Sequence record: NC_054892.1 | Origin: Escherichia phage vB_EcoS_PHB17 | Length of the DNA stretch: 48,939 nt | Direction: 5' to 3' (one strand) | Shown: positions 8,172 through 34,914 of the stretch, one piece after another | Numbering within the stretch: the stretch's first letter is position 1 | Layout: each line of letters opens with the position of its first letter | Translations under genes and position numbers: made by a program | Notes under the pieces: generated by a model | The model's database searches: none | Told to the model about the DNA's origin: nothing | The model's input: the letters and a program-made list of their open reading frames with translations, nothing else

Positions 8172-8175
8172 GCTG

Positions 8176-8893: not shown

Positions 8894-8897
8894 CAAC

Positions 8898-8923
8898 TAA
8901 CCCCGCGTTTGCGGGGTTTTTTA
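8898..8923 (+). terminator. rho-independent terminator
   Basis: CCCCGC-GTTT-GCGGGG stem followed by TTTTTT. Confidence 0.8.
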
Positions 8924-8965
8924 TTGCCTGTTATAATCGGACTCCAACAAAGGAGGGCAATTATC

Positions 8966-9487
8966 ATGGCTAAAAACGTCGAACCTGCTGTAAAGGCATT
9001 GAATTTTAAAGAGCTATACAATAAGAAATATGGCGACATTGCGCGATTGAGCAACGCGCACACACTTACGCCGGAGCAAGTTTTTGATCTGGCGGTTCGC
9101 TATTTTGAATGGGCGGAAAAAAATCACATTGAAGCGGCGGAAACTGCATCCTTTCAGGGCGATGTATACGAATCAAAAATCCATAAGCCGCGAATCTTTA
9201 CCCTTAACGGCTTGCGCCTGTTTTGCGGATTCTCTGAGGCCGTTACTCTGAAATGGCGCAGGGAGCCAGGATTCAGCGAAGTGATGGAATTCATCGACAC
9301 GGTAATCAATGAGCAGAAATTCCAGCTTGCGGCGAATAACCTTGTAAACGCCTCGTTTATCGCCAAAGATATTGGCGTTGATAAGCCAGCAAGCATTAAC
9401 GTTGAAGCAAACGCAAACGCCAGCGTTGACGCAGTGACGGCGGAAGAAGTAAAAGACGCGGTGCGGGATATCTTAGGAGAAATCTGA
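8966..9487 (+). CDS. putative terminase small subunit (173 aa)
   Basis: ATG 8966 after AAGGAGG; sits immediately upstream of terminase large subunit; assigned by position only. Confidence 0.5.
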   Translation: MAKNVEPAVKALNFKELYNKKYGDIARLSNAHTLTPEQVFDLAVRYFEWAEKNHIEAAETASFQGDVYESKIHKPRIFTLNGLRLFCGFSEAVTLKWRREPGFSEVMEFIDTVINEQKFQLAANNLVNASFIAKDIGVDKPASINVEANANASVDAVTAEEVKDAVRDILGEI

Positions 9488-9489
9488 TC

Positions 9490-11058
9490 ATGCTTATTTG
9501 GGAAGATTTGACAGCGGCGCAGAAACGCGCCATTAAAGAAATGAGCGAGCTTTCATTTGAAAAGATGATCCGCATATGGTTTCAACTCCTGCAAGGCCAG
9601 AAGTTTTTAAGCAACTGGCATTTCAGCTACCTATGCAGTGAGGTAGAGAAAATCATTTCCGGCGAATCGCAAAACGTGATCTTTAACATCACGCCAGGTT
9701 CGGGTAAAACGGAAATCTTTTCGATCCATATGTCGCCGTATGCGTCAATCAAAAGCAAAAAGGTGCGCAACCTTAATCTTTCGTTTAGTGATGGCCTGGT
9801 GCAACAGAACAGCAACAGGATCAAGGAGATTGTTGGATCTCCAGAGTGGCAAGAGTTATGGCCTGGCAAGCTGGCGAAAGCCAGCGCCAAAGATCTGATT
9901 GTGCAGGACGAAAACGGGAAAGTTAAGTTGCAGGTGAATTCCCGTTCAATTGGTGGACAGGTTACGGGCTTGCGTGGCGGCTATATGGATGATGGTTTTA
10001 CGGGGATGTTGGTACTTGACGATCCAGACAAACCAGATGATATGTTTTCGAAGGTGCGCCGTGAAGCAATGCAAATGCGCCTAAAAAACACCGTGCGATC
10101 ACGTCGAATGAAAGACACAACGCCAATCGTAATGGTTCAGCAGCGGCTACACGTCAATGATTCTACTTACTTCATGACAAGCGGCGGCATGGGCGGCATT
10201 CAGTTTAAAGTTGTGAGCATTCCGGCGCTAGTTACGAAAGAATACCGCGAAACGCTTCCTGAGTGGTTAATTCCTGAATTTGATCGTGATGTGCTGACAA
10301 GCGAGCCTGTTTATATTGACGGCGTGGCGCATTACTCTTTTTGGCCTGCAAAGGAGAGCGCAAAAGACCTTTTAGCGCTACGCGAGGCCGACCCATACAC
10401 TTTTGCATCACAGTATCAGCAGCATCCTATAGCGTTAGGCGGCAACGTGTTTAAAGTGGATTGGTTCCAGTATTACGGCGACGGCGAGAAATGCACGCTA
10501 CCAAAACCGGAACGCTTTGAGTACACATTTATTACGGCGGATACAGCGCAAAAAGTAGGCGAGCTAAACGACTACACTGTTTTCTGTTATTGGGGCATGT
10601 ACAAAAACCGCGTTTACTTCATTGATGGCGTGCGCGGCAAATGGGAAGCGCCAGACCTTGAAACAAACTTTGTGGCTTTCGTTAATCAGTGCTGGAAGCG
10701 CAACAAAGAATGCGGCTCCTTGCGTAGAATCCACGTCGAGGATAAAGCGAGCGGAACGGGCTTGATTCAGGGGGCAAAGAAAAAGATCCCTATTGATATA
10801 AATCCCGTTCAGCGCAACACGGACAAAGTAACACGCGCGATGGATGCAGCACCAGTTATGAGGGCGGGGCGCGTTGCATTGCCTGAAAACCATCCAATGC
10901 TTGCGGAGCTACTCGCAGAGGTGGCTGCGTTCACGTTCGATGATTCTCATCCAAACGACGATATCGTTGATAACATCGTTGATGCGGTCAACGTGGAAAT
11001 GAACCTCGCAGACGATCCGGTTGCACGCATGAAAAAACTGGCTGGATTGAAGAAATAG
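9490..11058 (+). CDS. terminase large subunit (522 aa)
   Basis: ATPase P-loop TPGSGKTE in N-terminal half, acidic nuclease-type C-terminal half; first of packaging/head genes. Confidence 0.85.
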   Translation: MLIWEDLTAAQKRAIKEMSELSFEKMIRIWFQLLQGQKFLSNWHFSYLCSEVEKIISGESQNVIFNITPGSGKTEIFSIHMSPYASIKSKKVRNLNLSFSDGLVQQNSNRIKEIVGSPEWQELWPGKLAKASAKDLIVQDENGKVKLQVNSRSIGGQVTGLRGGYMDDGFTGMLVLDDPDKPDDMFSKVRREAMQMRLKNTVRSRRMKDTTPIVMVQQRLHVNDSTYFMTSGGMGGIQFKVVSIPALVTKEYRETLPEWLIPEFDRDVLTSEPVYIDGVAHYSFWPAKESAKDLLALREADPYTFASQYQQHPIALGGNVFKVDWFQYYGDGEKCTLPKPERFEYTFITADTAQKVGELNDYTVFCYWGMYKNRVYFIDGVRGKWEAPDLETNFVAFVNQCWKRNKECGSLRRIHVEDKASGTGLIQGAKKKIPIDINPVQRNTDKVTRAMDAAPVMRAGRVALPENHPMLAELLAEVAAFTFDDSHPNDDIVDNIVDAVNVEMNLADDPVARMKKLAGLKK

Positions 11059-11076
11059 CACTAATTGCTAAAAAAC
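11055..11076 (+). promoter_or_regulatory. conserved motif copy ATAGCACTAATTGCTAAAAAAC
   Basis: Overlaps TAG stop of terminase large subunit; followed by TGATATAAT and terminator hairpin. Confidence 0.5.
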
Positions 11077-11085
11077 TGATATAAT

Positions 11086-11113
11086 CAGGGCTGGACTTTT
11101 CCAGCCCTTTTTA
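11086..11113 (+). terminator. rho-independent terminator-like hairpin
   Basis: AGGGCTGG-ACTTTT-CCAGCCCT then TTTTT, between terminase and portal genes. Confidence 0.6.
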
Positions 11114-11129
11114 TTATGGAGATCAGGTT

Positions 11130-12410
11130 ATGACTGAAAAAAACAAACTTGTTAAGGCCGATGGCTACAATGAAACATTCGGTTGCGGGAAACGCGTTGA
11201 GCAACCTTTCTACATGCAAGGTATTGCAAAAACCACGCTTGCGACTTTTTACGAGCAAGACGGGTTAGCAAAGAAAATCGTTGATGTGATCCCGGAAGAT
11301 ATGGTTACGCCAGGGTTTAGGGTTGAGGGGATCGCAGATGAGGCAGCTTTCCGTTCCCTATGGGATGAGAAGCGACTCAACGCAAAAATCATCGACGCTC
11401 TTTGCTGGTCACGTTTGTTCGGCGGCGCTGCAATCGTTGCGGTTGTGCAAGATGGGCGCATGTTGAAATCACCAGTTAAGGAGGGAGCCGTTTTAGAGGA
11501 TATTCGTGTTTATGATCGCTATCAGGTTCGAGTAGAAAAGCGTGAGACAAACGCGCGGAGCGTGCGTTATGGGGAGCCTGTTTTGTACACGATTTCACCA
11601 GGGAACGACATTCCAGAATATCAGGTGCATTACACGCGAATTTGCATCATTGATGGTGAGCGTCTACCTAACGAGCAGCGAAAAAACAATGATGGTTGGG
11701 GCGGTTCAGTCCTCAACAAGCGACTGATTGAAGCCATTCACGATTACAACTATTGTGAAGAACTGGCGAGCCAGCTTTTACGACGCAAACAGCAAGCAGT
11801 GTGGAAAGCGCGAGGCCTGGCGGATTTATGCGACGACGACGAAGGGGTTGCAGCAGCGCGGTTGCGTTTGGCGCAGGTTGACGACGAAAGCGGCGTAGGA
11901 AAGGCAATTGGTATTGACGCCAATGATGAGGAATACGAGGTTCTAAACTCTGATGTTGCGGGTGTTCCTGAATTCCTGCAAAGCAAGTTTGATCGCATCG
12001 TCGCCTTAACTGGTATTCATGAGATCGTACTGAAAAACAAGAATACTGGCGGCGTAAGCGCAAGCCAAAACACCGCGCTTGAAACTTATCACAAACTTAT
12101 TGATCGCAAACGTGGAGAGGACTACAAACCAGTTTTAGAATTCATCCTCCCTTTCCTGGTGAGTGAATCAGAATGGTCTATCACGTTCGAGCCGCTTTCC
12201 GTTCCGAGCGACAAGGATCAGGCGGAAGTATTAAACAAAAACGTTGATTCTGTCACTAAGCTGGTGCAGGATCAGCTAATCGACACGGAAGAAGCGCGCG
12301 ACACGTTGCGCTCTATGGGTTCGATTATCAAGATCAAAGACACTGATAACATCAAGCTACCGAAACCGGAAGAAACGGAACCGGAGCCAGGAACGGAGAA
12401 TAATCAATGA
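11130..12410 (+). CDS. portal protein (426 aa)
   Basis: Size and position directly after terminase large subunit; acidic C-terminus. Confidence 0.75.
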   Translation: MTEKNKLVKADGYNETFGCGKRVEQPFYMQGIAKTTLATFYEQDGLAKKIVDVIPEDMVTPGFRVEGIADEAAFRSLWDEKRLNAKIIDALCWSRLFGGAAIVAVVQDGRMLKSPVKEGAVLEDIRVYDRYQVRVEKRETNARSVRYGEPVLYTISPGNDIPEYQVHYTRICIIDGERLPNEQRKNNDGWGGSVLNKRLIEAIHDYNYCEELASQLLRRKQQAVWKARGLADLCDDDEGVAAARLRLAQVDDESGVGKAIGIDANDEEYEVLNSDVAGVPEFLQSKFDRIVALTGIHEIVLKNKNTGGVSASQNTALETYHKLIDRKRGEDYKPVLEFILPFLVSESEWSITFEPLSVPSDKDQAEVLNKNVDSVTKLVQDQLIDTEEARDTLRSMGSIIKIKDTDNIKLPKPEETEPEPGTENNQ

Positions 12411-13156
12411 AGGTAAACGGCATTGTTAAGCAATGGCGATTTCCAGAAGCGAGCGAGCGGGATTTATCCCGCTCCATCAAGCGAGCGGTGCGCGATCTGG
12501 TTGTGCTTATGCGCAGCAAAACGCGTGCAATGAAGTTTGACGCAACAGATCAGGAAATCACCACGGCAGAAGATGAGATCAGGGAATTCGCAAAGAATCT
12601 GGCGTTGTCTCTGATTGGTCTACTTCCACAACTTGCGGCTACGGTCTACAAGTTCAACTCAAAGCAATTCGTTAACGTTGCGAAATCTACGGGCGGCGCG
12701 GCTAATCCTTCCGTTATTTTGCTGATCGCAATCGGAGCCAATCAGGGAGAAAGCTGGTATCAAAAGCTATATGGCGAATGGCACACAATGAGCGCTGATT
12801 CATTCGATAAGCTATTCACTAACATCATTCAGGATTGGGCGAGTAATATCCGGCAAGCCAACTTTACCGGAAAGAATGCGGAGCAGGTTAACGAGCTTTC
12901 AGAGCAGCGATTCGCGGTCTATTCGTCCTGGTCTGGCAACCGTGCAACCGGAATTATAGGATCGTGGAATAGTCGCCTGATGCGCCAGCGACTTTATGAT
13001 GCTGGGGTGAATTCTTATTTCTGGCATGGTATGCTTGATGAGCGCGAGCGCTTAAAGCATTTGCGTTGGGAAGGAAAAGAGATTGATTTGAATGAAATTC
13101 ATCCCTTCCCTGGTGAGGAATACGGTTGCCGTTGTTGGGCGATCCCTAAATGGTAG
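12407..13156 (+). CDS. minor head / head morphogenesis protein (249 aa)
   Basis: Position after portal, start overlapping portal stop; conserved C-terminal region. Confidence 0.6.
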   Translation: MKVNGIVKQWRFPEASERDLSRSIKRAVRDLVVLMRSKTRAMKFDATDQEITTAEDEIREFAKNLALSLIGLLPQLAATVYKFNSKQFVNVAKSTGGAANPSVILLIAIGANQGESWYQKLYGEWHTMSADSFDKLFTNIIQDWASNIRQANFTGKNAEQVNELSEQRFAVYSSWSGNRATGIIGSWNSRLMRQRLYDAGVNSYFWHGMLDERERLKHLRWEGKEIDLNEIHPFPGEEYGCRCWAIPKW

Positions 13157-13169
13157 AGGAGCAAACAAA

Positions 13170-14282
13170 ATGAAAAAGGTTCAACGCTTTGATAGCGTTC
13201 AGGTAAAGGCAAAAATTGATGAGCATGGTTTTTTGGTAGACCGTCCTATTGTTGCCCGTATTGGGTTGCAGGTTTACAAGACGCCTTTTGGCGAGCGTCG
13301 AGAATTCCGCCCCGCCTCCGAGGTGTTCAAGGCTGATTCGCTTGAAACGTTTTCAGGCAAGCCGATCACTATCGGTCACGTCACAGTGACGCCGGAGAAT
13401 GCAAAAGAGGTTGTTGTTGGCGCGTGCGCTGGTGCTGGCGTGCAAAATGGGATCGGGGTAGAGGTTCCATTAAGCATTTACGACAAGCGAGCCATTCAGA
13501 GCGCTAAGAAAAAGCAAACCGCCGAATTGTCAGTAGGCTACACGTCTGTAGATATTGACAAGCCAGGTTGGGGCAACAATGCAACTGGTGAATACTTCTT
13601 TGATGAAGATATGCCGGAAGGATGGAAAGCGGATAGCGCGGATTGGGTGCGATTTGATGCGGTTCAGACAAATATTAGCGTTAACCATATCGCTTTGGTA
13701 TTCAAAGGCCGCGCAGGTATCGCAAAATTGAATCTTGATAGTGAGCAGGAATTCCCGTATGATAATTGCGAACAATCTAAAAAAGAGGATACTGTAATGA
13801 CTGTAAAAATTAAACTTGACGGCGCGGTTGAATTCGACGTTCCGAAAGAGGTTGCAACCTTCATCGACACCGTGAAAGCAGACGCAGAAGCGGCAAAAGC
13901 AAAAGCCGATGGCCTGGAAGCAGAGCGCGACGCGCTGCAAACCAAAGTTGATGGCATTCCGGCAGAAATCGAAAAAGCCGTTAAACAGGCGAAAGCAGAC
14001 GCAGAAGCACATGCGGAGCTTGTAAAAGTTGCCGAGGAAGTTGGTGTTAAAACCGATGGCCTGGACGCCAAAGCGATCAAAGTTGCTTACGTAAAAGAGG
14101 TTACTGGCGCTGACATTTCCGCGAAAGCAGACGCATACATTGATGTTGCATTTGATCTGGCGAAAGATTCTGATAAAATGGCGGCTCAACGTATCGCGAC
14201 CAAAGGCGATGCGGCAAAAGAAAAGCAGGACGGCGAAACGGCTCTAAACCCAAACGCACGCCTGGCTAAACTCAACAAGTAA
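13170..14282 (+). CDS. putative scaffolding / prohead protease-like protein (370 aa)
   Basis: ATG 13170 after AGAGGAG; C-terminal half is Ala/Lys/Glu-rich coiled-coil-like; lies between head morphogenesis and capsid genes. Confidence 0.5.
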   Translation: MKKVQRFDSVQVKAKIDEHGFLVDRPIVARIGLQVYKTPFGERREFRPASEVFKADSLETFSGKPITIGHVTVTPENAKEVVVGACAGAGVQNGIGVEVPLSIYDKRAIQSAKKKQTAELSVGYTSVDIDKPGWGNNATGEYFFDEDMPEGWKADSADWVRFDAVQTNISVNHIALVFKGRAGIAKLNLDSEQEFPYDNCEQSKKEDTVMTVKIKLDGAVEFDVPKEVATFIDTVKADAEAAKAKADGLEAERDALQTKVDGIPAEIEKAVKQAKADAEAHAELVKVAEEVGVKTDGLDAKAIKVAYVKEVTGADISAKADAYIDVAFDLAKDSDKMAAQRIATKGDAAKEKQDGETALNPNARLAKLNK

Positions 14283-14294
14283 GGAGAAACAAAA

Positions 14295-14771
14295 ATGGCT
14301 ATTCCGGCATACTATCAGAAAAACATGGCACGCGCTTTACCTGGCCAGGTTTCCGACACTTCCGCCTACAACATTGACGGCGCTTGTGTTCTGGACGGCG
14401 ACGTTAATATCCTGGTTGGCGTTGCGGTTCAGCATGGCGGCGTTGACGCCATTGGTAACAAGAAAGTCAAGCCAATGGCGTCTGAGGGTAAGGCTTACGG
14501 TGTGGCGATTCGCTCCCACTTCCAGACCACTTCCGCAAGCGGTCGCATGATGTACGAGGCTGGCGGCGGCATCAACGTTATGACCGAAGGTCGCGTTTGG
14601 ATGGTTGCAAAAGATGAAACCGCACCAGCTTACAAAACAGCGATCAAGCTGGCTGATGACGGAGAGGTTGATACCAATAGCGGCACAATCGAAACCAATT
14701 GGGTTGCAACTGGTGACTTCACCGAGTTCCAGGATCTCAAGCTGGTTGAGGTGAAGTTGTTCGGCGCTTAA
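14295..14771 (+). CDS. capsid-associated structural protein, paralog 1 (158 aa)
   Basis: AAGGAG RBS; clear similarity to the next ORF (YNIDG, VNV-T-G-VW blocks); followed by terminator. Confidence 0.5.
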   Translation: MAIPAYYQKNMARALPGQVSDTSAYNIDGACVLDGDVNILVGVAVQHGGVDAIGNKKVKPMASEGKAYGVAIRSHFQTTSASGRMMYEAGGGINVMTEGRVWMVAKDETAPAYKTAIKLADDGEVDTNSGTIETNWVATGDFTEFQDLKLVEVKLFGA

Positions 14772-14785
14772 TGCCACGTTACAAT

Positions 14786-14811
14786 AAGGCACTCTACTGA
14801 GTGCCTTTTTT
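14786..14811 (+). terminator. rho-independent terminator
   Basis: AAGGCACTC-TACT-GAGTGCCTT then T tract; between the two paralogous structural genes. Confidence 0.75.
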
Positions 14812-14832
14812 ATTTGCACAGGAGAAAATGTT

Positions 14833-15336
14833 ATGAGTGATTACGGCGTATTATGGGGAGCAACCAAGCCAGGGTGTTTGATTGATTCCACGAGATACAA
14901 CATCGACGGCACAGGGGTTTGCAAGTCGGATTCAATCCTGATTGGTAAGGCTGTATGTTTTGCCGGATTCGACGGCGTTTACAAAATGTTATCAGATGAT
15001 TTTGGCGACACTGCCGAAGCCGTTGCGGTTGGCGTCGCATTGAGAACTAACGACTGTTTAACCATTGATGAACATATGGGCTACATGGCGTACCGATCAG
15101 GCGATTCCGTGAACGTTGTCACTCGCGGCAATGTTTGGGCTTTATCTGAGGAGATCGTTTCCCGTCCAGAATTCGGTTACAAGGTTTCGGTCTTGAGCGA
15201 TGGTTTTATCAGCGACGCCGGAGAGTTCGTTGTTGATGGTTGGGAGTTCACTGGTGACTTCATCAAGTACGACAACCAATTTAACCTGGTGGGCGTTAGC
15301 TTGAAGCGTCCTGGTCGGCTCGTAGCCGCTCAATAA
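14833..15336 (+). CDS. capsid-associated structural protein, paralog 2 (167 aa)
   Basis: AGGAGA RBS; paralog of 14295-14771. Confidence 0.5.
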   Translation: MSDYGVLWGATKPGCLIDSTRYNIDGTGVCKSDSILIGKAVCFAGFDGVYKMLSDDFGDTAEAVAVGVALRTNDCLTIDEHMGYMAYRSGDSVNVVTRGNVWALSEEIVSRPEFGYKVSVLSDGFISDAGEFVVDGWEFTGDFIKYDNQFNLVGVSLKRPGRLVAAQ

Positions 15337-15354
15337 CACAAAAACCTGTTGCAC

Positions 15355-15373
15355 GTTTAACAAAAAGTGCTAT
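15355..15373 (-). promoter_or_regulatory. conserved motif copy, reverse orientation
   Basis: TTAACAAAAAGTGCTAT on plus strand between paralog 2 and major capsid genes. Confidence 0.4.
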
Positions 15374-15419
15374 CATTGGGCTGTTGATTGAAAACAGCCA
15401 CTTTTAAGGAGAATTAGCA

Positions 15420-16391
15420 ATGACTGATAAAACCAAAAAGTACGATGAATTTGATGCTTCCATTGTTTCCGCCCACCTGCAAGCGCAGGGTGTGAAAGCT
15501 GACGCATCCGATATGGGTATTTGGACGGCGCAGGAGCTACACAAAATCCGCTCTACCGCATACGACAAAGAATACCCTGTAGGCTCCGCGCTTCGCGTGT
15601 TCCCTGTTACTAATGAACTTAGCGACACGGATAAAACTTTTGAATACCAGACCTTTGATAAAGTTGGTTACGCAAAAATTATCGCTGACTATACCGACGA
15701 CCTGCCAACTGTAGACGCGCTTATGTCTACTGAGTTTGGTAAAGTGTTCCGCCTTGGTAATGCGTTCCTGATTTCCATTGACGAAATCAAAGCAGGTCAA
15801 CGAACTGGTAAGAGCCTGAGCAACCGCAAAGCAAACGCAGCGCAGAGCGCACACGATCACCTTGTTAATCACTTGGTGTTCAAAGGTTCCAAGCCGCACA
15901 AAATTGTGTCAGTGTTTGACCATCCGAACATCACCAAAGTTGTTGCGGCGGAAAAATGGTATGACGCAGGAACCAAAACCAAACGCGCGGAACAGGCTTA
16001 CAACGATCTGACTGATGCGCTGGAAGTGCTGGAAACCCAAACTGACGGGCAGCACCGAGCAACTCACATTCTGATCCCGCCGTCCGTCCGTAAAGTTCTT
16101 ATGGTTCGTATGCCTGAAACCACCGAAAGCTATCTTGATTATTTCATGAAGCAGAACGGCGGTATTACCATTGAAGCAATCGCGGAACTGGAAGATTACG
16201 ACGGTAACGGCAACAAGGGCGTACTGGTCTATGAAAAAGACCCGATGAATATGTCTATTGAAATTCCAGAAGCGTTTAACATGCTTCCGGCGCAGCCTAA
16301 AGACCTGCATTTCAAAGTGCCTTGCACCTCAAAATGCACTGGCCTGACAATTTATCGCCCATTAACTATTGTGTTAATCACTGGCGTGTAA
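15420..16391 (+). CDS. major capsid protein (323 aa)
   Basis: AAGGAG RBS; size and position in head module; followed by terminator. Confidence 0.75.
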   Translation: MTDKTKKYDEFDASIVSAHLQAQGVKADASDMGIWTAQELHKIRSTAYDKEYPVGSALRVFPVTNELSDTDKTFEYQTFDKVGYAKIIADYTDDLPTVDALMSTEFGKVFRLGNAFLISIDEIKAGQRTGKSLSNRKANAAQSAHDHLVNHLVFKGSKPHKIVSVFDHPNITKVVAAEKWYDAGTKTKRAEQAYNDLTDALEVLETQTDGQHRATHILIPPSVRKVLMVRMPETTESYLDYFMKQNGGITIEAIAELEDYDGNGNKGVLVYEKDPMNMSIEIPEAFNMLPAQPKDLHFKVPCTSKCTGLTIYRPLTIVLITGV

Positions 16392-16398
16392 TAATATT

Positions 16399-16424
16399 GG
16401 GGAATCCTTCTGGGTTCCCCTTTT
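16399..16424 (+). terminator. rho-independent terminator-like hairpin
   Basis: GGGGAATCC..GGGTTCCCC stem (1 mismatch) plus TTTT after major capsid gene. Confidence 0.55.
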
Positions 16425-16442
16425 ACTTATGGAGATTAAAAA

Positions 16443-16715: not shown

Positions 16716-16719
16716 ACCC

Positions 16720-16742
16720 TGGGGCGCTAATAGCGCCCTTTG
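16720..16742 (+). terminator. weak terminator-like hairpin
   Basis: GGGCGCT-AATA-AGCGCCC with only 3 T. Confidence 0.35.
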
Positions 16743-16763
16743 TCATATCTGGAGGAAGTGAAA

Positions 16764-17536: not shown

Positions 17537-17969
17537 CTACAAGATCCGGCAATTTGAGGAAACAGTTGATAAATGGATAGAGGCCGCTGGTGACGGCATG
17601 GTTGATTGCATAGAGATATTTGGGGGTAAGGTTCAAACCGCGCTAGTTAATGGCTCACCAGTCGATACAGGCCGATTTAAAGGCAACTGGCAAGTCACAG
17701 CAAACAAAGTGCCTTTGTATGCACTCAATCAGTACGACAAAGACGGGAGCAAAACCATTGCAGAGGGTAAACGGGCGCTTTATGCCATTATGCGTGGAGG
17801 CGGCGCGGTTCGCTCTATTCACTTTTCAAACATGCTTATTTACGCAAATTCTCTTGAGTACGGGCATTCTAAGCAAGCTACCGCTGGCGTTGTGGGTATC
17901 GTTGCAGTAAGATTGCGATCATTCATGGCGGAAGCAATAAAAGAGTCGAGGATAAAAAATGCACTATGA
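17529..17969 (+). CDS. putative tail completion protein (146 aa)
   Basis: ATG 17529 after GGAGGA; position. Confidence 0.5.
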   Translation: MANYKIRQFEETVDKWIEAAGDGMVDCIEIFGGKVQTALVNGSPVDTGRFKGNWQVTANKVPLYALNQYDKDGSKTIAEGKRALYAIMRGGGAVRSIHFSNMLIYANSLEYGHSKQATAGVVGIVAVRLRSFMAEAIKESRIKNAL

Positions 17970-18360
17970 GCTAATGTTAGCGGCGCGTAAGGCGCTGGCG
18001 GAGCAGTACGAGCGGCGTTACCCAATAGCTTACGAAAACGTTGAATTTGTACCTCCCGCCGATGGTTCTCAATGGCTGGCGTTTCACTATAAAGAAGTCG
18101 ATACAGCTTACCTTTCCCTTGATCGCAAATGCCGATCATTTATCGGGATGGTTCAGGTAAACATTGTGTTTGCTCCTGGTTCCGGCACTGACAAGGCGCG
18201 GCGACTGGCAAAAGATATTGCTGATTTCTTTGAAGATGGTAAAATGCTAGACGTTGGTTATATATTCGAGGGCGGAGAAGTTCGACCAATTCAAAAGAGT
18301 GAAACAGGCTGGCTTGTTCCGGTTCGTTTCAGTGTTAGAGTAGAAGAAAAGAGGATCTAA
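17959..18360 (+). CDS. putative tail terminator protein (133 aa)
   Basis: Position immediately upstream of major tail protein. Confidence 0.45.
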   Translation: MHYELMLAARKALAEQYERRYPIAYENVEFVPPADGSQWLAFHYKEVDTAYLSLDRKCRSFIGMVQVNIVFAPGSGTDKARRLAKDIADFFEDGKMLDVGYIFEGGEVRPIQKSETGWLVPVRFSVRVEEKRI

Positions 18361-18362
18361 TT

Positions 18363-19022
18363 ATGCACCTTCCTAACGGTTCACAAATTTTTATTGAAAG
18401 CACGCGAGCGGCAGAAAAAGAAGTAACTGCCATTACCAATGCAAAGGAACCAGTTGCAAGCATTTCAGACACCGAAGGTCTGGCAAAGGGCGATATTGTG
18501 ATCGTTGTTGCTTCCACCTGGGGAAAGATGCTTGATCGCGTTCTACGAATCAAAGATGTACAGGAAAACCAGAGCGTAACTCTTGATGGTATCGACACAA
18601 CAGATACTAACGTTTTTCCGGCTGGCGCAACTGCAAGCATTGCGAAAATCACCGCGTGGACTGAGATCCCATGTGTTCAGGATCTTTCGCAGGACGGCGG
18701 CGAACAACAGTTTTACACTTACCAGTGTTTGTCCGACGATCAGGAGCAGCAGATCCCGACCTACAAGAGCGCTGTTTCTATGACTTACACTTTTGCGCAC
18801 GAATACGACAACGCAATTTACCCGCTGTTGCGTAAAGCCGATGAATCAGGCGAAGTAACCGCGTTGCGTATGTACGTACCGAAAGCAAAAGAAATGCGCA
18901 TGTGGGCTGGTGTTCTCTCTTTCAACGAGATCCCACAAACCGCAGTTAACGAGATGGAAACCGTTTCCATCTCTTGCTCCCTTAAAGGGCGCTTTACTTT
19001 CCTTCCTGCAACGCAGGGTTAA
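18363..19022 (+). CDS. major tail protein (219 aa)
   Basis: AAGAGG RBS; followed by the strongest terminator in the window then the chaperone genes. Confidence 0.7.
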   Translation: MHLPNGSQIFIESTRAAEKEVTAITNAKEPVASISDTEGLAKGDIVIVVASTWGKMLDRVLRIKDVQENQSVTLDGIDTTDTNVFPAGATASIAKITAWTEIPCVQDLSQDGGEQQFYTYQCLSDDQEQQIPTYKSAVSMTYTFAHEYDNAIYPLLRKADESGEVTALRMYVPKAKEMRMWAGVLSFNEIPQTAVNEMETVSISCSLKGRFTFLPATQG

Positions 19023-19024
19023 CC

Positions 19025-19050
19025 AAAAGGGGCATTGCGCCCCTTTTTTT
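19025..19050 (+). terminator. rho-independent terminator
   Basis: GGGGC-ATTGC-GCCCC flanked by A4 and T7, after major tail protein gene. Confidence 0.85.
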
Positions 19051-19089
19051 ATTGCTGTAGAATCATCCTACCAAAACAAACCAAATCGC

Positions 19090-19108
19090 TTTTAACAAAA
19101 AGTGCTAT
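19090..19108 (-). promoter_or_regulatory. conserved motif copy, reverse orientation
   Basis: TTTTAACAAAAAGTGCTAT on plus strand between major tail terminator and chaperone gene. Confidence 0.4.
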
Positions 19109-19124
19109 TCATGGAGAAATCAAA

Positions 19125-19442
19125 ATGTCTAAATTCAAACTCACCCTTGCCCCGCTTCCAAACTTCAAACTTCCGGTTAAATTTGTAATGCCAGATGGTA
19201 ACGAAGGTTCGATCCTGTTTACGGTTCGCCACCTGAAAGCAAAAGAAGTGCAAGCGATGTATGAATCCGAAAGCGTAGTTACTGATTCTGAATTTATCAT
19301 GAAACTGGCTACTGGTTGGGATCTGGAGGAAGAATTTAACGAGGAGAATGCAAAAACCCTTGTTGAGCTTTACCCTGGTGCGGCGCTTGCCCTGACTGGT
19401 TCCTATCTTTCAGCGCTGGCAGGTCAACGCGTAAAAAACTAA
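19125..19442 (+). CDS. tail assembly chaperone (G-like, 105 aa)
   Basis: ATG 19125 after GGAGAAA; ends with slippery A AAA AAC directly before stop. Confidence 0.75.
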   Translation: MSKFKLTLAPLPNFKLPVKFVMPDGNEGSILFTVRHLKAKEVQAMYESESVVTDSEFIMKLATGWDLEEEFNEENAKTLVELYPGAALALTGSYLSALAGQRVKN

Positions 19443-19756
19443 AACGGGCGGTTTATCTGTTTTACCAGAAGCCGCCCACAGATGCAGAGCTTGAGGCCGT
19501 AGGTTTAACCCGCGCTGATTACGAAGGTGAGGAGCCTCCTGAGATTATCTTTGATGAAAGCATGATGCAATCATGGGATATATTTTGCGCTATGCAAACT
19601 CAATGGCGATCCGCTGGTGCTGGTGCTTACGGCTTTGATTACAATGTTTTGCCTATGTTGTTCAAAATCTATAAAATAGAAGATGAAGAAATGGCATTGA
19701 ATGACTTGCGAATCATGGAAAGCAAAGCGCTTGAAATGATGCACGCGAGCAAATAA
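19125..19756 (+). CDS. tail assembly chaperone G-T fusion made by -1 programmed frameshift
   Basis: Heptamer A AAA AAC at 19433-19439; the -1 frame is open from 19367 to 19756. Confidence 0.6.
19433..19439 (+). other. -1 ribosomal frameshift slippery heptamer AAAAAAC
   Basis: X XXY YYZ in zero frame of chaperone gene, 1 codon before its stop. Confidence 0.65.
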
Positions 19757-19757
19757 C

Positions 19758-19781
19758 AAAGCGCCTACGGGCGCTTTTTTC
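19758..19781 (+). terminator. rho-independent terminator-like hairpin
   Basis: GCGCC-TACG-GGCGC plus T6 between frameshifted chaperone and tape measure genes. Confidence 0.7.
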
Positions 19782-19798
19782 ATATCGGAGGAATAGTT

Positions 19799-22489
19799 AT
19801 GGCGGAACAATACGCGGGAATTTCGTTAGGCGTTGACGTTTCACAAGTCAATAACGCCGTAAAATCCTTGCAGCAGTTCAAACAGGCAAACCACGACGCA
19901 GCAAAAAGCGTTGAGGGCTTTGTTGATCAGGAACAAGTTGCAAAGCAGCGCTCGAAAGAGCTTGCACAAGAGTTGGCAAAACAGCGCAAGGAATTTCAAA
20001 ACATCCAAAACGCGATTGACCCAACGGCGGCTAAAATGGATCGCTTGCGCCAGGCGTCCAAGCAATTAGATAGCCTTTGGAAAAAAGGCATTGTGCCTGA
20101 TAAAGATTTCTTTCAGTTGGGGGAAATCCTTGAGGCTCAAGAATCAAAGCTGCAACGAAACAGAAAGGCGCTAACAGAGGAAGGGCGCGCGGCGCTTGAG
20201 GAGTCAAAGCAGAAAGCCAGGGCAGCAGCAGAGGCGCAAAAATTCATTGCGGCTCTTGAGGCGCAAGCGGCGGCGGCTGGAAAGACTCAAGCCGAACTAA
20301 CGGAAATGAAAGCGGCTCAATTGGGCGTAAGCGCACAGGCAGCGCCATTTATCGCGCAGATGCGAGCGCAGGAAAAGGAAGTTGAAAAGTTAGGAATCTC
20401 AATGGGGCAGTATCGCCAGGCTATGCGAATGCTTCCGGCGCAGATCACAGACGTTGCAACTTCACTTGCTGGCGGTATGCCGATTTGGTTAGTGGCAATC
20501 CAGCAGGGTGGACAGATTAAGGATTCTTTTGGCGGTCTTGTTCCGATGTTCAAGGCGCTTGCAACATTCATCACGCCTTTCAATGTTGGTCTTGCGGCGC
20601 TGGTTGGTACGTTGGGTTATCTGACTTACAACGCGTACAGTTCTAAAAAGGCACTCGATGAGGTATCAAAAACCGTTCAGGATGCAACGGGGCTTTCCGG
20701 CGAGTTCGCGGAAAAGATTTCGTTAGGTGTTCAGGCGTTAGCAGACGCGAGCGGCAAGAGCGCAGATGAGATCGCAAAGGCTTACATTTCCACGAAAGAC
20801 GGCGCACAGGAAGCGATTGAAAAGCTGGTTAACGTTGGCTTTAGCTATGACGAAGCGCGGGAGAAGGTGGAGCAATATAAAAATGCTTCCAGCTTTGTGA
20901 CGCTAAACAATGAGATTGCTGATCATATGAACAAGGTGCTTGAATTGGGTGATTCCTGGTTTGAGGTGCTCAAGAAGAAAAAAGAGTACATTTCACCTAC
21001 TGGCGGCGGCGGTGGCTCCCTGGCTGACAAAGAGTTAGGCCACGTAAACAAGGCTCTTGTTTTTGCGAAACAGACGCACGCCGACATTGCAAAGATCGTG
21101 AAAGACAGCAACGTTGATTTTGCAAAGCGTGCTGGCGAGATTGACAAAACAAACCTTTCCCTAAACCGCTTGCGTGCAGCACAGGAAGCACTAAACAAAG
21201 CGATTGAGGATGAAAAATATGTTGCTCAATCTTCAGACAAGGAGCTAAAGAAAAAGGCGGCTGAAAACGTAGCGTTGCGCCGGAAAGAGCTTGAGGAGTT
21301 ACAGAAACTTGAGCAGAAGAAAGGCAAGACCAAAACGCAGGGCGGGATCACGAAAAGCCCAACAGAACAGCTTGATAAAGAGTTGTACGTTTTGAAAGCG
21401 CAGTTAGAAACGCTGAAAGAGCATCGCACTGTTAACGATGTGATTTCGCGCCAGCGCCAAGCGTTGTGGAGTGTTGAAAAGCAGATCCAGATCTTGCAGG
21501 AAGCGCAAAGCAAACGCGGCCTAACCGCAGCAGAGAAAAAGCTATTGGCGGAACAGCAAAGCGTGCTGGAGTTGTCAAAGCAAAAAGCGGAGTTGGGCGA
21601 TCAAATTTTGATTCAGGAGCGCAAAAACAAACTTGAGCAAAATTCAGTCGATTTTATCCGCGAGACTACCGCAGCGATTGAGGAGCTAAACCTGAAACAA
21701 CAGGGCATGACGGATCAGCAAATTCAGCGCGAGCTTGAGTTGCAAAAAATCCGGTCTGATTACCTTGCGAAAGGCGGAAGCGTTGATGATACAGCGTTGC
21801 AGGACATGATCGCGAAACGCAAGGAGTATTTCGAAATGGAGGATCAGTTACAAGGCAACTGGCTTGCTGGAGCTAAAAAGGCGTTTGCCGATTACGGGCA
21901 GGAAGCAACCAACATGTACGCCAATGTTAACGAAGTCGCTACGGCTGGCCTGAATGGTTTATCGTCGTTAATGACTGACTTCCTGACTACCGGAAAAGCC
22001 AGCTTTAAAGATTTTGCAAGTAGCATCATTAAAATGATTGTTCAGATGATCGCTAAGATGGCAATCTTTAACGCTATTTCCGGCGCGATGGGTGGCAAAA
22101 CATTCTCGTTTTCTGGACTGGCTAAAGGTTATGCTGGAGGGGGTTACACTGGTGATGGCGGAAAGTATGATCCGGCTGGCGTGGTTCACAAAGGTGAATT
22201 TGTATTCACCAAAGAGGCAACACAGAGGATCGGAGCCAAAAACCTTTACCGCTTGATGCGTGGCTACGCTAACGGCGGCAGTGTTGGCGGTTCGGCTCAA
22301 ACGAGAGGCGCGTCGGTTGGCAGTGTTGGATCTCAATTCAATTTCGGTGATATCATGGTTGACGTGAACAACGGCAACGACCCGCGAGGAATGGAAACAG
22401 GGATCAAGATGATTTTCACTGAAATGATTCAACGGGCGTGCTCGCAGGGCGGCGAGGTATATAACTTTGTTAATAGTAAGAGGGGGTAA
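19799..22489 (+). CDS. tail tape measure protein (896 aa)
   Basis: Long coiled-coil-rich ORF after the chaperone pair; Gly-rich C-terminal region. Confidence 0.85.
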   Translation: MAEQYAGISLGVDVSQVNNAVKSLQQFKQANHDAAKSVEGFVDQEQVAKQRSKELAQELAKQRKEFQNIQNAIDPTAAKMDRLRQASKQLDSLWKKGIVPDKDFFQLGEILEAQESKLQRNRKALTEEGRAALEESKQKARAAAEAQKFIAALEAQAAAAGKTQAELTEMKAAQLGVSAQAAPFIAQMRAQEKEVEKLGISMGQYRQAMRMLPAQITDVATSLAGGMPIWLVAIQQGGQIKDSFGGLVPMFKALATFITPFNVGLAALVGTLGYLTYNAYSSKKALDEVSKTVQDATGLSGEFAEKISLGVQALADASGKSADEIAKAYISTKDGAQEAIEKLVNVGFSYDEAREKVEQYKNASSFVTLNNEIADHMNKVLELGDSWFEVLKKKKEYISPTGGGGGSLADKELGHVNKALVFAKQTHADIAKIVKDSNVDFAKRAGEIDKTNLSLNRLRAAQEALNKAIEDEKYVAQSSDKELKKKAAENVALRRKELEELQKLEQKKGKTKTQGGITKSPTEQLDKELYVLKAQLETLKEHRTVNDVISRQRQALWSVEKQIQILQEAQSKRGLTAAEKKLLAEQQSVLELSKQKAELGDQILIQERKNKLEQNSVDFIRETTAAIEELNLKQQGMTDQQIQRELELQKIRSDYLAKGGSVDDTALQDMIAKRKEYFEMEDQLQGNWLAGAKKAFADYGQEATNMYANVNEVATAGLNGLSSLMTDFLTTGKASFKDFASSIIKMIVQMIAKMAIFNAISGAMGGKTFSFSGLAKGYAGGGYTGDGGKYDPAGVVHKGEFVFTKEATQRIGAKNLYRLMRGYANGGSVGGSAQTRGASVGSVGSQFNFGDIMVDVNNGNDPRGMETGIKMIFTEMIQRACSQGGEVYNFVNSKRG

Positions 22490-22491
22490 TA

Positions 22492-22845
22492 ATGGCGGCG
22501 CTTGATGAATTTACATGGTGTACTCAAATTCAAAGTAGCGGCGGCGCAATGACCACGACGAACAACGACAGGGAGGTTGTTTTCGGAAATGGTTACACGC
22601 AAGTTGCATCGTCTGGATTCAATACGGTGCGGCGTGAGTTCTCTATTGCTTACGTTGGACTTGATTACAAAGAAGTGATCGCGTTCATGAATAGCCATAG
22701 GCTCAAGCCGTTTTTGTGGATTACGCCGGACGGCTCACCAGGGCTTTTCCGTGTTAAGTCTGGAAGCGTCGCAGCAACGCCGCTTTCGTCAACCGTTCAG
22801 GAAGTCAAAGCGACTTTCACGGAGCAATTCACCAGCATGAAGTAA
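22492..22845 (+). CDS. minor tail protein (lambda M-like, 117 aa)
   Basis: Size and position after tape measure. Confidence 0.7.
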   Translation: MAALDEFTWCTQIQSSGGAMTTTNNDREVVFGNGYTQVASSGFNTVRREFSIAYVGLDYKEVIAFMNSHRLKPFLWITPDGSPGLFRVKSGSVAATPLSSTVQEVKATFTEQFTSMK

Positions 22846-22847
22846 TC

Positions 22848-22873
22848 AAAGCCGCCTTTGTGCGGCTTTTTTA
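22848..22873 (+). terminator. rho-independent terminator
   Basis: AGCCGC-CTTTGT-GCGGCT plus T6. Confidence 0.8.
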
Positions 22874-22912
22874 TTGGTGCTATAATGCGCACTCAAAAGA
22901 GGAGAAAACGAC

Positions 22913-23668
22913 ATGGCTATAAACTTGAATAAGGATTTCGCCAACTGCTTACAAAGCCTTTACCCTGGCGAGATCATCACACTTGTTGAGGTTGACGGCA
23001 CAAAGTTTGGTGCAAACGTCTACCGATTCCATGCAGAGAATTTGCAGTATACGGCGGAAGAATTAATGATCGCTAAAGAAACTGGCGTTCTACCGTCGAA
23101 AGACATTACTTTCCAGGGTGAGGTATACGGGGCGCGGCCTTTCGGCATTACCGGAATCAGCTTCACCAGTAACGGCAAAGCAGATAAACCACAGTTGACG
23201 CTTTCTAATCTTGATAGCCAGGTTAGCGCGATGATTCGCACATACAATGGCATGATGCAAGCAAAGGTGACAATATGGATCACTTCCGCAGATCTGATGC
23301 AGCCAGACGGAAGCGTTGCCGATGGAGCTTATCGAAAACTGGTTTACTACATTGAGCGCCCGAATTACTGCAATCAGTCAATCGCTCGATTCGATCTCAC
23401 ATCTCCTTATGATATGGATGGAATCATGATCCCGCCGCGCATATCGCAGAGTGTTTGTTATTGGGCGCAACGTGGCTGGTATCGTTCCGGCAAAGGATGC
23501 GCGTATAATGGATCGCGAATGTTCGACAAAGACAACAACCCCGTAACCGATCCAGCGCAGGATTATTGCGCAGGAACAGCGACGTCTTGCAAGTTGCGTT
23601 TTGGTGCGGAGAATGAAATTGATTTCGGCGGTTGCGCCGTTGCTTCACTGTTGAGGAAAAACCAATGA
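22913..23668 (+). CDS. minor tail protein (lambda L-like, 251 aa)
   Basis: Size and position; Cys-rich C-terminus. Confidence 0.7.
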   Translation: MAINLNKDFANCLQSLYPGEIITLVEVDGTKFGANVYRFHAENLQYTAEELMIAKETGVLPSKDITFQGEVYGARPFGITGISFTSNGKADKPQLTLSNLDSQVSAMIRTYNGMMQAKVTIWITSADLMQPDGSVADGAYRKLVYYIERPNYCNQSIARFDLTSPYDMDGIMIPPRISQSVCYWAQRGWYRSGKGCAYNGSRMFDKDNNPVTDPAQDYCAGTATSCKLRFGAENEIDFGGCAVASLLRKNQ

Positions 23669-24390
23669 TTAACGCAAAAATAAAACTTGAAATTATGCGG
23701 CACGCTCAAGACGTTTACCCCCATGAATGTTGCGGCGTGGTTACTCAAAAAAGCAGAGTGCAAAAATACCACAGGATCGATAATGTTCACGCAGACCCTG
23801 AAAATCATTTTGAAATGGATGCGTCAGAATACGCACAGGCGCTTTATAGCGGGGAGCTAATCGCGGTAGTGCATTCACACACTGGCGACGGTGCAACGAC
23901 GCTACCGAGCGCCCACGACACTTGCATTTGTGATGAAATGGGGGTTACGTGGATTATCGTTTCTCTACCAGAGGGAGATATGCGTTTTGTTGAACCGGAA
24001 TCAAGGCCGCTGACTGGTCGCCCCTGGTCGCTTGGTTCATATGATTGTTGGGGTTTGGTTATGGCCTGGCATAAAGAACAAGGCGTGATCCTGAATGATT
24101 TCCGTAAACCTTACGAGTGGTGGAAGCCGGAACACGGCGAGAACCTCTATCAAGATAATTATTTGAAAGAGGGTTTTATCCCTACTGGCAATGAGCCGCA
24201 ACCTGGCGATATGGTGATCATGCAGTTGCAAGCGCCAGTGTGGAACCATGCAGGAATTTACCTGGGTAACAATCAGATATTGCACCACGCATACGGAAAG
24301 TTATCACGCACGGATATTTATTCCGGATGGTATCAAGAGCACACAGTTATGATTTGCAGACATAAGGATCTCAAATATGGAAACAGTTAA
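23665..24390 (+). CDS. tail assembly protein (lambda K-like; JAB/MPN plus NlpC/P60 domains, 241 aa)
   Basis: HECCGVV ... HSHTGDGATTLPSAHD metalloprotease motif, then Cys-His hydrolase region. Confidence 0.8.
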   Translation: MINAKIKLEIMRHAQDVYPHECCGVVTQKSRVQKYHRIDNVHADPENHFEMDASEYAQALYSGELIAVVHSHTGDGATTLPSAHDTCICDEMGVTWIIVSLPEGDMRFVEPESRPLTGRPWSLGSYDCWGLVMAWHKEQGVILNDFRKPYEWWKPEHGENLYQDNYLKEGFIPTGNEPQPGDMVIMQLQAPVWNHAGIYLGNNQILHHAYGKLSRTDIYSGWYQEHTVMICRHKDLKYGNS

Positions 24391-24976
24391 AAAAATCAAA
24401 CTTTCCGGCTCCCTTGGGCGTCGCTTTGGCGTTTTCCATCACTACGCTGTTGATAGTTTTCCAGAGGCAATCCGAGCGCTATCAAGCCAGGTTGAAGGAT
24501 TCAAAGACTACATGCAAAGCGAAGTGGGATCGCGTATGAAGTACGCAATCTTTGTTGATGGCGTCAACGTTGGCGAGCATAATGATAAAGCATGGCAATG
24601 CGGCAAAGAGATTAGGATTTTACCGATCCCGACAGGCTCAAAATCTGGCGGCTTGTTCCAGGTTGTTTTGGGTGCTGCAATTATGGCTACCGCTTTCTTT
24701 ACTGGCGGCGCATCACTGGCGGCGATGGGCGCGTTTTCCTCCTCCGCTTTCATGATGGGCGGCGCAATGGTATTGGGTGGAGCTATGCAAATGATTTCAC
24801 CGCAGCAAGGAGGCTCAATGATGGAAATGCAGAGCGCAGAAAACAAACCATCATACGCTTTCGGCGGCGCAGTCAATACAACGGCAGCAGGTTATCCGAT
24901 CCCGCTCCCGTTTGGCCTGAGAACAAACGGCGGTGCTGTATGGAGCGCCGGAAGTTATGCAGAGGACAAAGTTTAA
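24377..24976 (+). CDS. tail assembly protein (lambda I-like, 199 aa)
   Basis: Position after K-like gene; Gly/Ala-rich hydrophobic C-terminal half. Confidence 0.7.
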   Translation: METVKKIKLSGSLGRRFGVFHHYAVDSFPEAIRALSSQVEGFKDYMQSEVGSRMKYAIFVDGVNVGEHNDKAWQCGKEIRILPIPTGSKSGGLFQVVLGAAIMATAFFTGGASLAAMGAFSSSAFMMGGAMVLGGAMQMISPQQGGSMMEMQSAENKPSYAFGGAVNTTAAGYPIPLPFGLRTNGGAVWSAGSYAEDKV

Positions 24977-24981
24977 TTCTT

Positions 24982-25006
24982 ACCCCGCCTTGCGCGGGGT
25001 TTTTTA
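24982..25006 (+). terminator. rho-independent terminator
   Basis: CCCCGC-CTTGC-GCGGGG plus T6. Confidence 0.8.
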
Positions 25007-25054
25007 CGTCCGTATAATGGGTGAACCGATAAACAGCACAAAAGGTTAAAACAC

Positions 25055-34899: not shown

Positions 34900-34914
34900 T
34901 TGTAAATCTCCTAT

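Follow-up and report, generated by a model that had tools for sequence, protein, structure and literature searches.

Terminator hairpins with embedded promoter-like elements at late-gene junctions of Escherichia phage vB_EcoS_PHB17

Can one short intergenic sequence end the transcript of a structural gene and start that of the next? The question is raised by four junctions in the late region of Escherichia phage vB_EcoS_PHB17 (NC_054892.1), where an intrinsic terminator overlaps a -35-like hexamer that is followed, at a constant distance, by a -10 hexamer. The window analyzed here, 48,939 bp, is the complete genome of this T1-like siphophage of the family Drexlerviridae (IMG/VR UViG_2974745880), whose nearest GenBank relatives, BananaBelafonte, PaulSarasin and W011D, share only 82-85% identity over the query (window 8000-20000). 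T1-like phages encode neither an RNA polymerase (RNAP) nor a sigma factor of their own (PMC11447400), so that the host holoenzyme is the expected reader of their promoters. The four sites are probably bifunctional cassettes, serving as terminators in the form of RNA and as sigma-70 promoters in the form of DNA.

Anatomy and conservation of the four sites

All four sites lie on the plus strand, between genes named here after PHROGs and the T1 annotation, and their hairpins, co-oriented with these genes, begin 3-6 nt past the stops at 8893, 19022, 22845 and 24976. Site 1 (terminator 8899-8924) follows the last left-arm small gene, which ends at 8893, and forms a hairpin at 8899-8918 with the stem AACCCCGC/GCGGGGTT, the loop GTTT and a T-run at 8917-8922 (free energy of the RNA, dG, -14.7 kcal/mol); its promoter-like element (8909-8937) consists of TTGCGG (8909-8914), 17 bp and TATAAT (8932-8937), with an extended -10 TG at 8929-8930, and the predicted start at ~8944 precedes a Shine-Dalgarno (SD) sequence, aaggaggg, and the ATG of the small terminase gene (TerS, 8966-9487). 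Site 2 (19025-19050) stands directly 3' of the major tail protein gene (18363-19022), with its hairpin at 19025-19047, the stem AAAAGGGGC/GCCCCTTTT, the loop ATTGC and seven T (dG -14.0 kcal/mol), and the element at 19035-19063 reads TTGCGC (19035-19040), 17 bp, TAGAAT (19058-19063), with a predicted start at ~19070 ahead of the tape-measure chaperone gene (19125-19442). At site 3 (22848-22872), after the M-like minor tail gene (22492-22845), the hairpin at 22848-22869 has the stem AAAGCCGC/GCGGCTTT and the loop CTTTGT (dG -11.9 kcal/mol); TTGTGC (22858-22863), 17 bp and TATAAT (22881-22886), with an extended -10 TG at 22878-22879, make up the element at 22858-22886, and a start is predicted at ~22893, before the ATG of the L-like minor tail gene (22913-23668). 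Site 4 (24982-25006), after the I-like tail assembly gene (24377-24976), carries a hairpin at 24982-25000 with the stem ACCCCGC/GCGGGGT, the loop CTTGC and six T (dG -13.3 kcal/mol); here TTGCGC (24990-24995), 17 bp and TATAAT (25013-25018), then a G at -6, form the element at 24990-25018, and the predicted start at ~25025 precedes the J-like central tail fibre gene (25055-28615).

The hairpins are canonical for intrinsic terminators: their stems measure 7-9 bp and contain 5-6 GC pairs, the loops have 4-6 nt, dG ranges from -11.9 to -14.7 kcal/mol, and 6-7 consecutive T come after each. At sites 2-4 the loop contains the TTG, and at site 1 the 3' arm begins with its G. The downstream hexamers, TATAAT three times and TAGAAT once, are all of the form TAnnnT close to TATAAT; within an accepted spacing of 17 ± 1 bp they stand exactly 17 bp away in every case, and each is found 28-62 nt before a same-strand start codon with an SD in between. 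The initial annotation had placed four hexamer pairs at these positions, 17 bp apart, with the -35-like hexamer in the loop or 3' arm of an intrinsic terminator, and direct reading together with a pattern search agreed with it in each respect. From TTG to -10 the four sites align with one another without gaps, while the stems differ and the polarity of site 2 is opposite. The idea that the repeated geometry arose through a recent duplication was rejected on the latter two grounds; because their stems differ, the sites are not recent copies of each other.

The arrangement is not expected by chance, as had also been claimed from the repeated geometry. A search of both strands of the 48.9-kb window for TTG-N20-TA[T/G]AAT gave four matches, one at each of the four sites, whereas 100 dinucleotide-preserving shuffles gave 0.98 matches on average and three at most, with none (0/100) reaching four. 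TATAAT occurs on the plus strand of the window ten times, three of them at sites 1, 3 and 4. A simple sigma-70 position weight matrix, whose ranks are indicative only, placed site 3 third, site 1 fourth, site 4 14th and site 2 59th among ~98,000 positions.

Conservation was assessed in 145 loci retrieved from IMG/VR around three anchor proteins, to which T1 and Rtp were added from GenBank, and is given as counts of distinct relative sequences per site. The exact 17-bp spacing, whose persistence in close relatives had been proposed as a check on the idea, was kept at site 2 in 16/16 sequences, with TAGAAT, TAAAAT, TATAAT, TACAAT or TAATAT as the -10, and at site 3 in 15/21; at site 4, TTGCGC, exactly 17 bp and TATAAT or TACAAT recurred in 15 of the 18. 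In T1, the annotated terminators 18770, 22793 and 24972 show TTGCAC-17-TAAAAT, TTGCGC-17-TAGAAT and TTGCGC-17-TATAAT, respectively, with starts predicted at ~18812, ~22834 and ~25013, and the combination of TTG, 17-bp spacing and TAnAAT/TAATAT at sites 2-4 extends to the TLS group and ~10 further lineages. The -10 hexamers vary mostly at the third position (TATAAT, TACAAT, TAGAAT, TAAAAT), and TAATAT at site 2 changes the fourth as well. In sigma-70 promoters the third position of the -10 is the least constrained.

The sequence between the two hexamers changes, and its length does not. T-runs of the relatives measure 6-9 nt, and stem length and spacer sequence differ while the total stays at 17. 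An alignment of site 4 from 11 lineages leaves TTGCGCGG, the T-run and T-A-x-A-A-T invariant with no gap in between, the 3' half of the spacer and both flanks being variable, with indels. The 17 bp of this site are reached through five partitions into 3' arm, T-run and remainder (4+6+7, 3+7+7, 3+8+6, 3+9+5 and 3+6+8); since the sum is constant, the length changes are compensated. Loss is also shared: where one element is missing the others are missing too, as at site 3 of locus L016, which lacks both TTG and -10, and at sites 3-4 of Rtp. That TTG and -10 come and go together argues that the TTG is part of the promoter rather than a feature of the hairpin. In loci L006/L007, a ~500-bp insertion between the I-like and J-like genes replaces the site 4 promoter.

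A promoter reading of the cassettes and its limits

In the mechanism that we propose, an intergenic cassette of ~40 bp would have one role as RNA and another as duplex DNA. As RNA, the GC-rich inverted repeat and the U-run would end the transcripts of the upstream block and leave them with a protective 3' hairpin. As DNA, it would be a promoter of the host sigma-70 RNAP, in which the -35 TTG would coincide with the hairpin loop and the 17-bp spacer with the 3' arm, the T-run and 5-8 variable bases leading to TAnAAT. Sites 1 and 3 add TGn to this hexamer, and sites 3 and 4 a G at -6. The predicted starts (~8944, ~19070, ~22893 and ~25025) would lie beyond hairpin and U-run, so that the new RNA would be free of the terminator, and would give leaders of 20-55 nt with an SD. 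We infer that the promoters fire and that the terminators terminate; the proposal of the initial annotation, that the same sequence stops upstream transcripts and restarts transcription for the next gene, is supported by the statistics and the comparative evidence. The late region may be divided in this way into separately dosed modules, namely the small genes, then TerS-TerL and what follows up to the major tail protein, then chaperones-tape measure-M, then L-K-I, and finally J. The weakest -10 (TAGAAT or TAATAT) stands between the gene of the abundant major tail protein and those of the chaperone and tape measure, which are needed in low copy.

A more tentative step concerns the polymerase itself. 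E. coli RNAP is often retained on DNA after intrinsic termination and re-initiates at nearby promoters in vitro (PMC6978380; PMC6978322; PMC11347151), with an efficiency expected to depend on the distance between terminator and promoter (PMC6978380). At the four sites the RNA would be released in the T-run, ~20-25 bp upstream of the new start; an RNAP retained on the DNA after release would already occupy the promoter and might initiate anew after hardly any search. Termination might thus be coupled to restart by the overlap, and we infer, less firmly, that it is the same polymerase that would restart.

A number of observations weigh against a promoter at these sites. The -35-like hexamers (TTGCGG, TTGCGC, TTGTGC and TTGCGC) match TTGACA at 3/6 positions, through TTG only, where at least 4/6 would be looked for, and the remainder of the hexamer is GC stem sequence. 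Spacing is not uniform at site 3: the loci L006/9/10, which form one clade, have 15 bp and a degenerate T-run, L014 has 19 bp owing to two additional T, and L028 has 13-16 bp and reads as 16. The TTG of site 1 is found in just 4/31 distinct sequences, those of the window's clade (L029/30/39/40). No transcript 5'/3' end maps, transcription start sites or transcriptomes of T1-like (Drexlerviridae) phages were found in the searchable literature. Neither T1 (RefSeq and the re-annotated GenBank record) nor the records sampled among 331 (site 4) and 207 (site 3) matching phage records carry a promoter annotation at these junctions, some of the latter giving terminators only; this is absence of annotation, not evidence of absence. 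Near-consensus sigma-70 promoters before late genes also leave the timing of early and late expression unexplained, and the leaders of sites 2 and 4 contain copies of a 21-nt direct repeat (DR), which point to additional regulation. A consensus promoter scan, which demanded at least 4/6 in the -35, listed none of the four sites, and this is a threshold effect rather than a refutation. The TTATTG that follows the T-run was considered as an alternative -35 and rejected, being just 3-7 bp from the -10.

Site 1 and the phage Rtp indicate how far the embedded -35 extends. In lineages other than the window's clade, T1 included, the site 1 hairpin has loops of the TTCG-, AAAT- or GCAC-type, and the -10 (TATAAT, TAAAAT or TACAAT) lies 20-22 nt past the hairpin, 8 nt further downstream; relatives without the TTG have a TGn extended -10 in 27/30 distinct sequences, T1 reading TGgTAAAAT. 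In Rtp, sites 3-4 are plain terminators whose loops lack TTG and whose T-run leads directly into the ribosome-binding site, with no room for a promoter, while the major-tail-protein terminator is followed by a DR, 19 nt and TATATT, and the pre-TerS terminator by TGgTATAAT. The promoter slot is thus kept with differing implementations, a TGn extended -10 at site 1 and DR-19-TATATT after the major-tail-protein terminator of Rtp. As we read these patterns, the conserved feature would be a slot for a restart promoter right after certain terminators, and the overlapped form, with the -35 in the loop, would be the compact solution adopted at sites 2-4 by T1, by the TLS group and by the other relatives sampled, Rtp excepted.

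The variation at site 1 is also an argument for a reading in which nothing is embedded at all, the sites being terminators followed by -10-only or extended -10 promoters and the loop TTG being a feature of the hairpin that makes no contact with sigma region 4. Most relatives indeed dispense with the TTG at site 1 and use TGnTATAAT or TGgTAAAAT 20-22 nt after the hairpin, TGn is present at sites 1 and 3 of the window too, the -35 match is only 3/6, and the window terminators at 32718 and 42025 have TTG in or next to the loop and yet no -10. The first of these, a bidirectional terminator between convergent genes (32718-32744; AAAACCCCGC-ATT-GCGGGGTTTT; TTG in the loop), has no -10 17 bp downstream and is a negative example. 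We regard this alternative as unlikely. Sites 2 and 4 have no TGn and would be -10-only promoters, and nearly all lineages keep an unchanged TTG at a distance of exactly 17 bp from the -10, even though the position of the TTG with respect to the stem varies (loops GTTT, ATTGC, CTTTGT, CTTGC, CGTTGC and TTG) together with a T-run of 6-9. Terminators without a downstream -10 have the loops CTTT, TACT, TTCT and TACG instead, and those of Rtp without promoters TTCG, ATTA and CTAGT. The terminator before the tape measure gene (19758-19783, plus strand) serves as an internal negative control, with the loop TACG, neither TTG nor -10, an SD and ATG directly after the T-run, and no promoter-like element in any lineage compared. 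In TLS, terminators have TTG in the loop only at the four equivalents and at one bidirectional terminator (Table S1, PMC11447400). An explanation of the TTG as part of a stable CUUG tetraloop was rejected as well, for the loops have 4-6 nt and are not G(CUUG)C, and the TTG shifts with respect to the stem at a fixed distance from the -10. A search of the window against Rfam matched no family.

The direct repeat and other hairpin-associated hexamers

The DR, AAATAGCAC-N4-TGCTAAAA, occurs in 22 copies in the window against 0.28 expected, on the plus strand (e.g., 1524, 2028, 2349, 3636, 4606, 5602, 6908, 31516, 36462, 38957, 40124 and 40431) and on the minus strand (e.g., 30033, 36025, 45412, 47463, 48441 and 48794). 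In 19 of the 22 copies a -10-like hexamer (TATAAT, TATAGT and CATAAT among them) follows 18-20 nt on, mostly at 19, and after it come a leader of ~30 nt, an SD and an ATG. With respect to the predicted start the DR would span ~-52 to -32, with its dyad TAGCA-N5-TGCTA centered near -42, and its TTGCTA is 5 bp too far upstream for a normal -35; DR plus -10 looks like the main promoter architecture of the phage. None of the four -10 hexamers discussed above has a DR upstream, and the four sites are thus not DR-type promoters. Whether the terminator dyad could stand in for the DR as an activator site was considered and rejected, its center being at ~-35.5 rather than -41.5 and the two sharing no sequence. 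Two DR copies do stand in the leaders, an inverted one just upstream of the SD at site 2 (19090-19110, minus strand) and, at site 4, AAACAGCACAAAAGGTTAAAA (25031-25051, plus strand; ~+7 to +27), nearly invariant in relatives and corresponding to DR8 of TLS.

These two copies bring in a second alternative, according to which the promoters are real but, rather than being constitutive points of restart, are governed by a factor that recognizes the DR, as a regulated late switch, the overlap with the terminator only saving space. The near-invariance of the site 4 copy over 11 lineages speaks for it, as does T1 site 1, where a DR begins within the -10; and since DR copies elsewhere precede the -10 by 18-20 nt, the same protein might serve as an activator at ~-42 and as a repressor at ~+10. 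A regulator gene is also present (36007-36486, minus strand), whose product is a helix-turn-helix (HTH) protein matching phrog_2856 'transcriptional regulator' (6e-77) and homologous to T1 gp23 and Rtp52, its Cro/HTH Pfam matches being weak and below threshold; it is the obvious candidate for a DR-binding factor. Against this, the DR is absent from sites 1 and 3 of the window, no protein is known to bind it, and its function is given as unknown by the TLS authors (PMC11447400). Control of this kind would be compatible with the bifunctional cassettes and does not exclude them; as their replacement it has, in our view, a low probability, somewhat below that of the -10-only reading.

A third possibility places the action of TAnAAT on RNA or on the elongating polymerase, for example as an AU-rich processing site beside the 3' hairpin or a sigma-dependent pause of read-through polymerases, rather than as a promoter. 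In read-through RNA the hexamer would indeed lie 10-13 nt past the U-run, and AU-rich single-stranded segments beside hairpins are typical contexts of RNase E. We consider it very improbable, given that positions 1, 2 and 6 are fixed, position 3 is free and the distance to TTG is fixed at 17 bp, which is the signature of sigma-70 recognition; the hexamer is moreover accompanied by TGn and G at -6, and the same class of hexamer recurs genome-wide at a fixed distance after the DR, before genes on both strands. An accidental coincidence of T-rich loops with AT-rich hexamers between genes, for which one may invoke the weak -35 match and the choice of the hexamers by eye, is already effectively refuted by the shuffles, the position of all four matches on terminators and the deep conservation with compensated spacing, and its probability is negligible.

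Hairpins are associated with the DR-linked promoters as well, where most -10 hexamers are located within, or at, the loop of a stable hairpin, as in GGAGCAtttgtTATAGTGCTCC and ACGGGGTGA-TATAAT-TCATCCCGT, with examples at 1545-1587, 5623-5665, 6929-6971 and 31537-31578 (plus strand), at 45348-45391 and 48378-48420 (minus strand), and at 343, 863 and 2530 of the T1 locus L146. The RNA dG of these hairpins goes down to -18.5 kcal/mol, and over 18 promoters the mean z-score against shuffles was -2.6, with 11 below -2.4. T1, Rtp-like phages and other genera have the same arrangement of DR, -10 and hairpin with other stem sequences, and no description of a -10 in the hairpin loop of DR promoters was found in the accessible literature. 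On the minus strand at ~35964-36025, a DR (36005-36025), 18 nt and TATCAT in the loop of a -18.3 kcal/mol hairpin are followed by TTTTTT and the start of the primase-side gene at 35950; the whole resembles a terminator whose loop contains the -10 of the following promoter. A motif, CATCGAAAC(A/G)AA or ATACCAAC, recurs in the leaders of DR promoters, a few nt past the -10 and close to where the transcript is predicted to start (e.g., 1570-1585, 2400-2412, 38990-39005 and 40170-40185 on the plus strand, 48395-48380 on the minus strand). At ~34900-34970 on the minus strand, past the terminator at 34988-34971 and before the next start codon, a mini-palindrome of DR half-sites, AATAGTGCTATT, was observed, together with an inverted DR-like copy, TTAACAATTCGTGCTATAT, right before the SD, placed like the inverted DR at 19090-19110.

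Other terminators of the window have a -10-like hexamer on their 5' side (class B). At the TerL/portal junction (11080-11108, plus strand), TGaTATAAT (hexamer 11080-11085) abuts the terminator hairpin at 11087-11108, with a DR at 11053-11073, and the start, at ~11092, would lie inside the 5' arm; TATAAT and hairpin are kept in T1 and most lineages, Rtp-like phages having TAAACT/TACAAT. Extra genes, some of them bearing HNH-type sequences, are inserted exactly at this junction in L033, L054, L057, L058 and L063, and the cassette of DR, TATAAT and hairpin is kept or duplicated on the far side of the inserts. Two further plus-strand candidates are TTGTTC, 17 bp, TACAAT (14780-14785) and directly the hairpin at 14786-14807 (element 14757-14807), and, after the major capsid gene, TTGTGT, 17 bp, TAATAT (16392-16397), 1 nt and the hairpin at 16399-16420 (element 16369-16420). 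Both are conserved in some lineages only: the hexamer at 14780 is TATAAT/TAATAT/TAAAAT in several and missing in others, and the TAATAT-like hexamer at the capsid-gene terminator stays beside the hairpin even when the capsid C-terminus differs. In class B the start, predicted at ~14792 and ~16404 for these two candidates, would fall in the 5' arm, and the transcript would escape termination. Over 324 unique terminator contexts, which derive from the fetched loci and are not phylogenetically independent, strong -10-like hexamers are concentrated in three intervals, with few outside them: 73 at 2-6 nt upstream of the hairpin, 75 at 13-17 nt downstream and 47 at 20-23 nt downstream.

These arrangements lead us to a wider speculation, advanced with low confidence: T1-like phages may nest sigma-70 promoters in RNA hairpins as a rule, in three registers, with termination and re-initiation coupled through RNAP recycling. 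The first register would be the -35 TTG in the terminator loop at the four sites; the second, the -10 in the loop of a hairpin 18-20 nt after the DR, at most early and middle promoters and also in the terminator-like hairpin downstream of the minus-strand DR at 36005-36025; the third, the -10 abutting the 5' arm of a terminator, at TerL/portal, at the terminator at 14786 and at the capsid-gene terminator. In every register the predicted start would lie inside or beyond the 5' arm, so that the incoming RNA would receive a 3' hairpin or end, and the new RNA would escape. At the true terminators, the polymerase would release its RNA while already on the next promoter.

Relation to known systems and significance

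The idea of a restart after late terminators has a precedent in T1, whose late region was proposed to be a series of modules, each flanked by terminators and containing an RpoD promoter (Roberts, Martin & Kropinski 2004, cited from the summary in PMC11447400). The terminators annotated in T1 at 8322, 18770, 22793 and 24972 lie at the same junctions and between the same genes (ahead of TerS, behind the major tail protein and M-like genes, and ahead of J), and in these 'transcriptons', too, an RpoD-type promoter stands right after the boundary terminator, as judged from sequence only. A re-analysis of TLS under stricter criteria found only three sigma-70 promoters genome-wide and did not confirm the transcriptons (PMC11447400); apart from that paper, the term returned only an unrelated use in the searchable literature. 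The concept is thus already published for T1, the novelty of our observations is modest, and the arrangement is real but fairly ordinary and in part described. The exact overlap, with TTG in the loop and a compensated 17 bp, and its conservation across the family seem undocumented in the accessible literature.

Comparison with other systems helps to delimit the cassettes. The DR of T1-like phages (aaATAGCACnnnTTGnTAAAA; PMC11447400) occurs in the same genomes and intergenic regions, co-oriented with transcription, and, like the cassettes, looks like a means to supply the upstream half of a promoter; the four sites differ from DR promoters in having the terminator-loop TTG in its place and, at sites 2 and 4, a DR downstream of the -10. 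Recycling of RNAP (Kang et al. 2020, PMC6978380; Harden et al. 2020, PMC6978322) likewise involves a terminator with a nearby sense promoter, but was studied on artificial templates with separated elements, whereas here the two overlap, at a distance of effectively zero. Extended -10 promoters are matched by sites 1 and 3 and by site 1 of most relatives (TGnTATAAT/TGgTAAAAT), in contrast to sites 2 and 4, with TTG at 17 bp and no TGn. Rtp, of the Braunvirinae, has terminators at the same junctions and promoters after the pre-TerS and major-tail-protein terminators, but keeps promoter and terminator separate, in the form of DR-19-TATATT or of TGgTATAAT 20 nt downstream; its loops are of the TTCG-type, and its sites 3-4 are promoterless.

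The cassettes and the DR-linked -10 hexamers would supply the promoters apparently missing from the TLS re-annotation with its three. Because the loop contains the -35 TTG at sites 2-4, point mutations would be able to separate promoter from terminator function, so T1 may be a convenient natural system for the study of post-termination re-initiation by RNAP at an overlapping promoter in vivo, and the cassettes, at ~40 bp, compact bifunctional parts of possible use in synthetic biology. If termination and re-initiation are indeed physically coupled, they would represent a natural, evolved case of such coupling, and their interest would be higher. For the family as a whole, the sites would provide a map of how phages without a polymerase or sigma factor of their own partition late transcription and set the ratios of their proteins, for instance between the abundant major tail protein and the scarce chaperones, tape measure and tip proteins.

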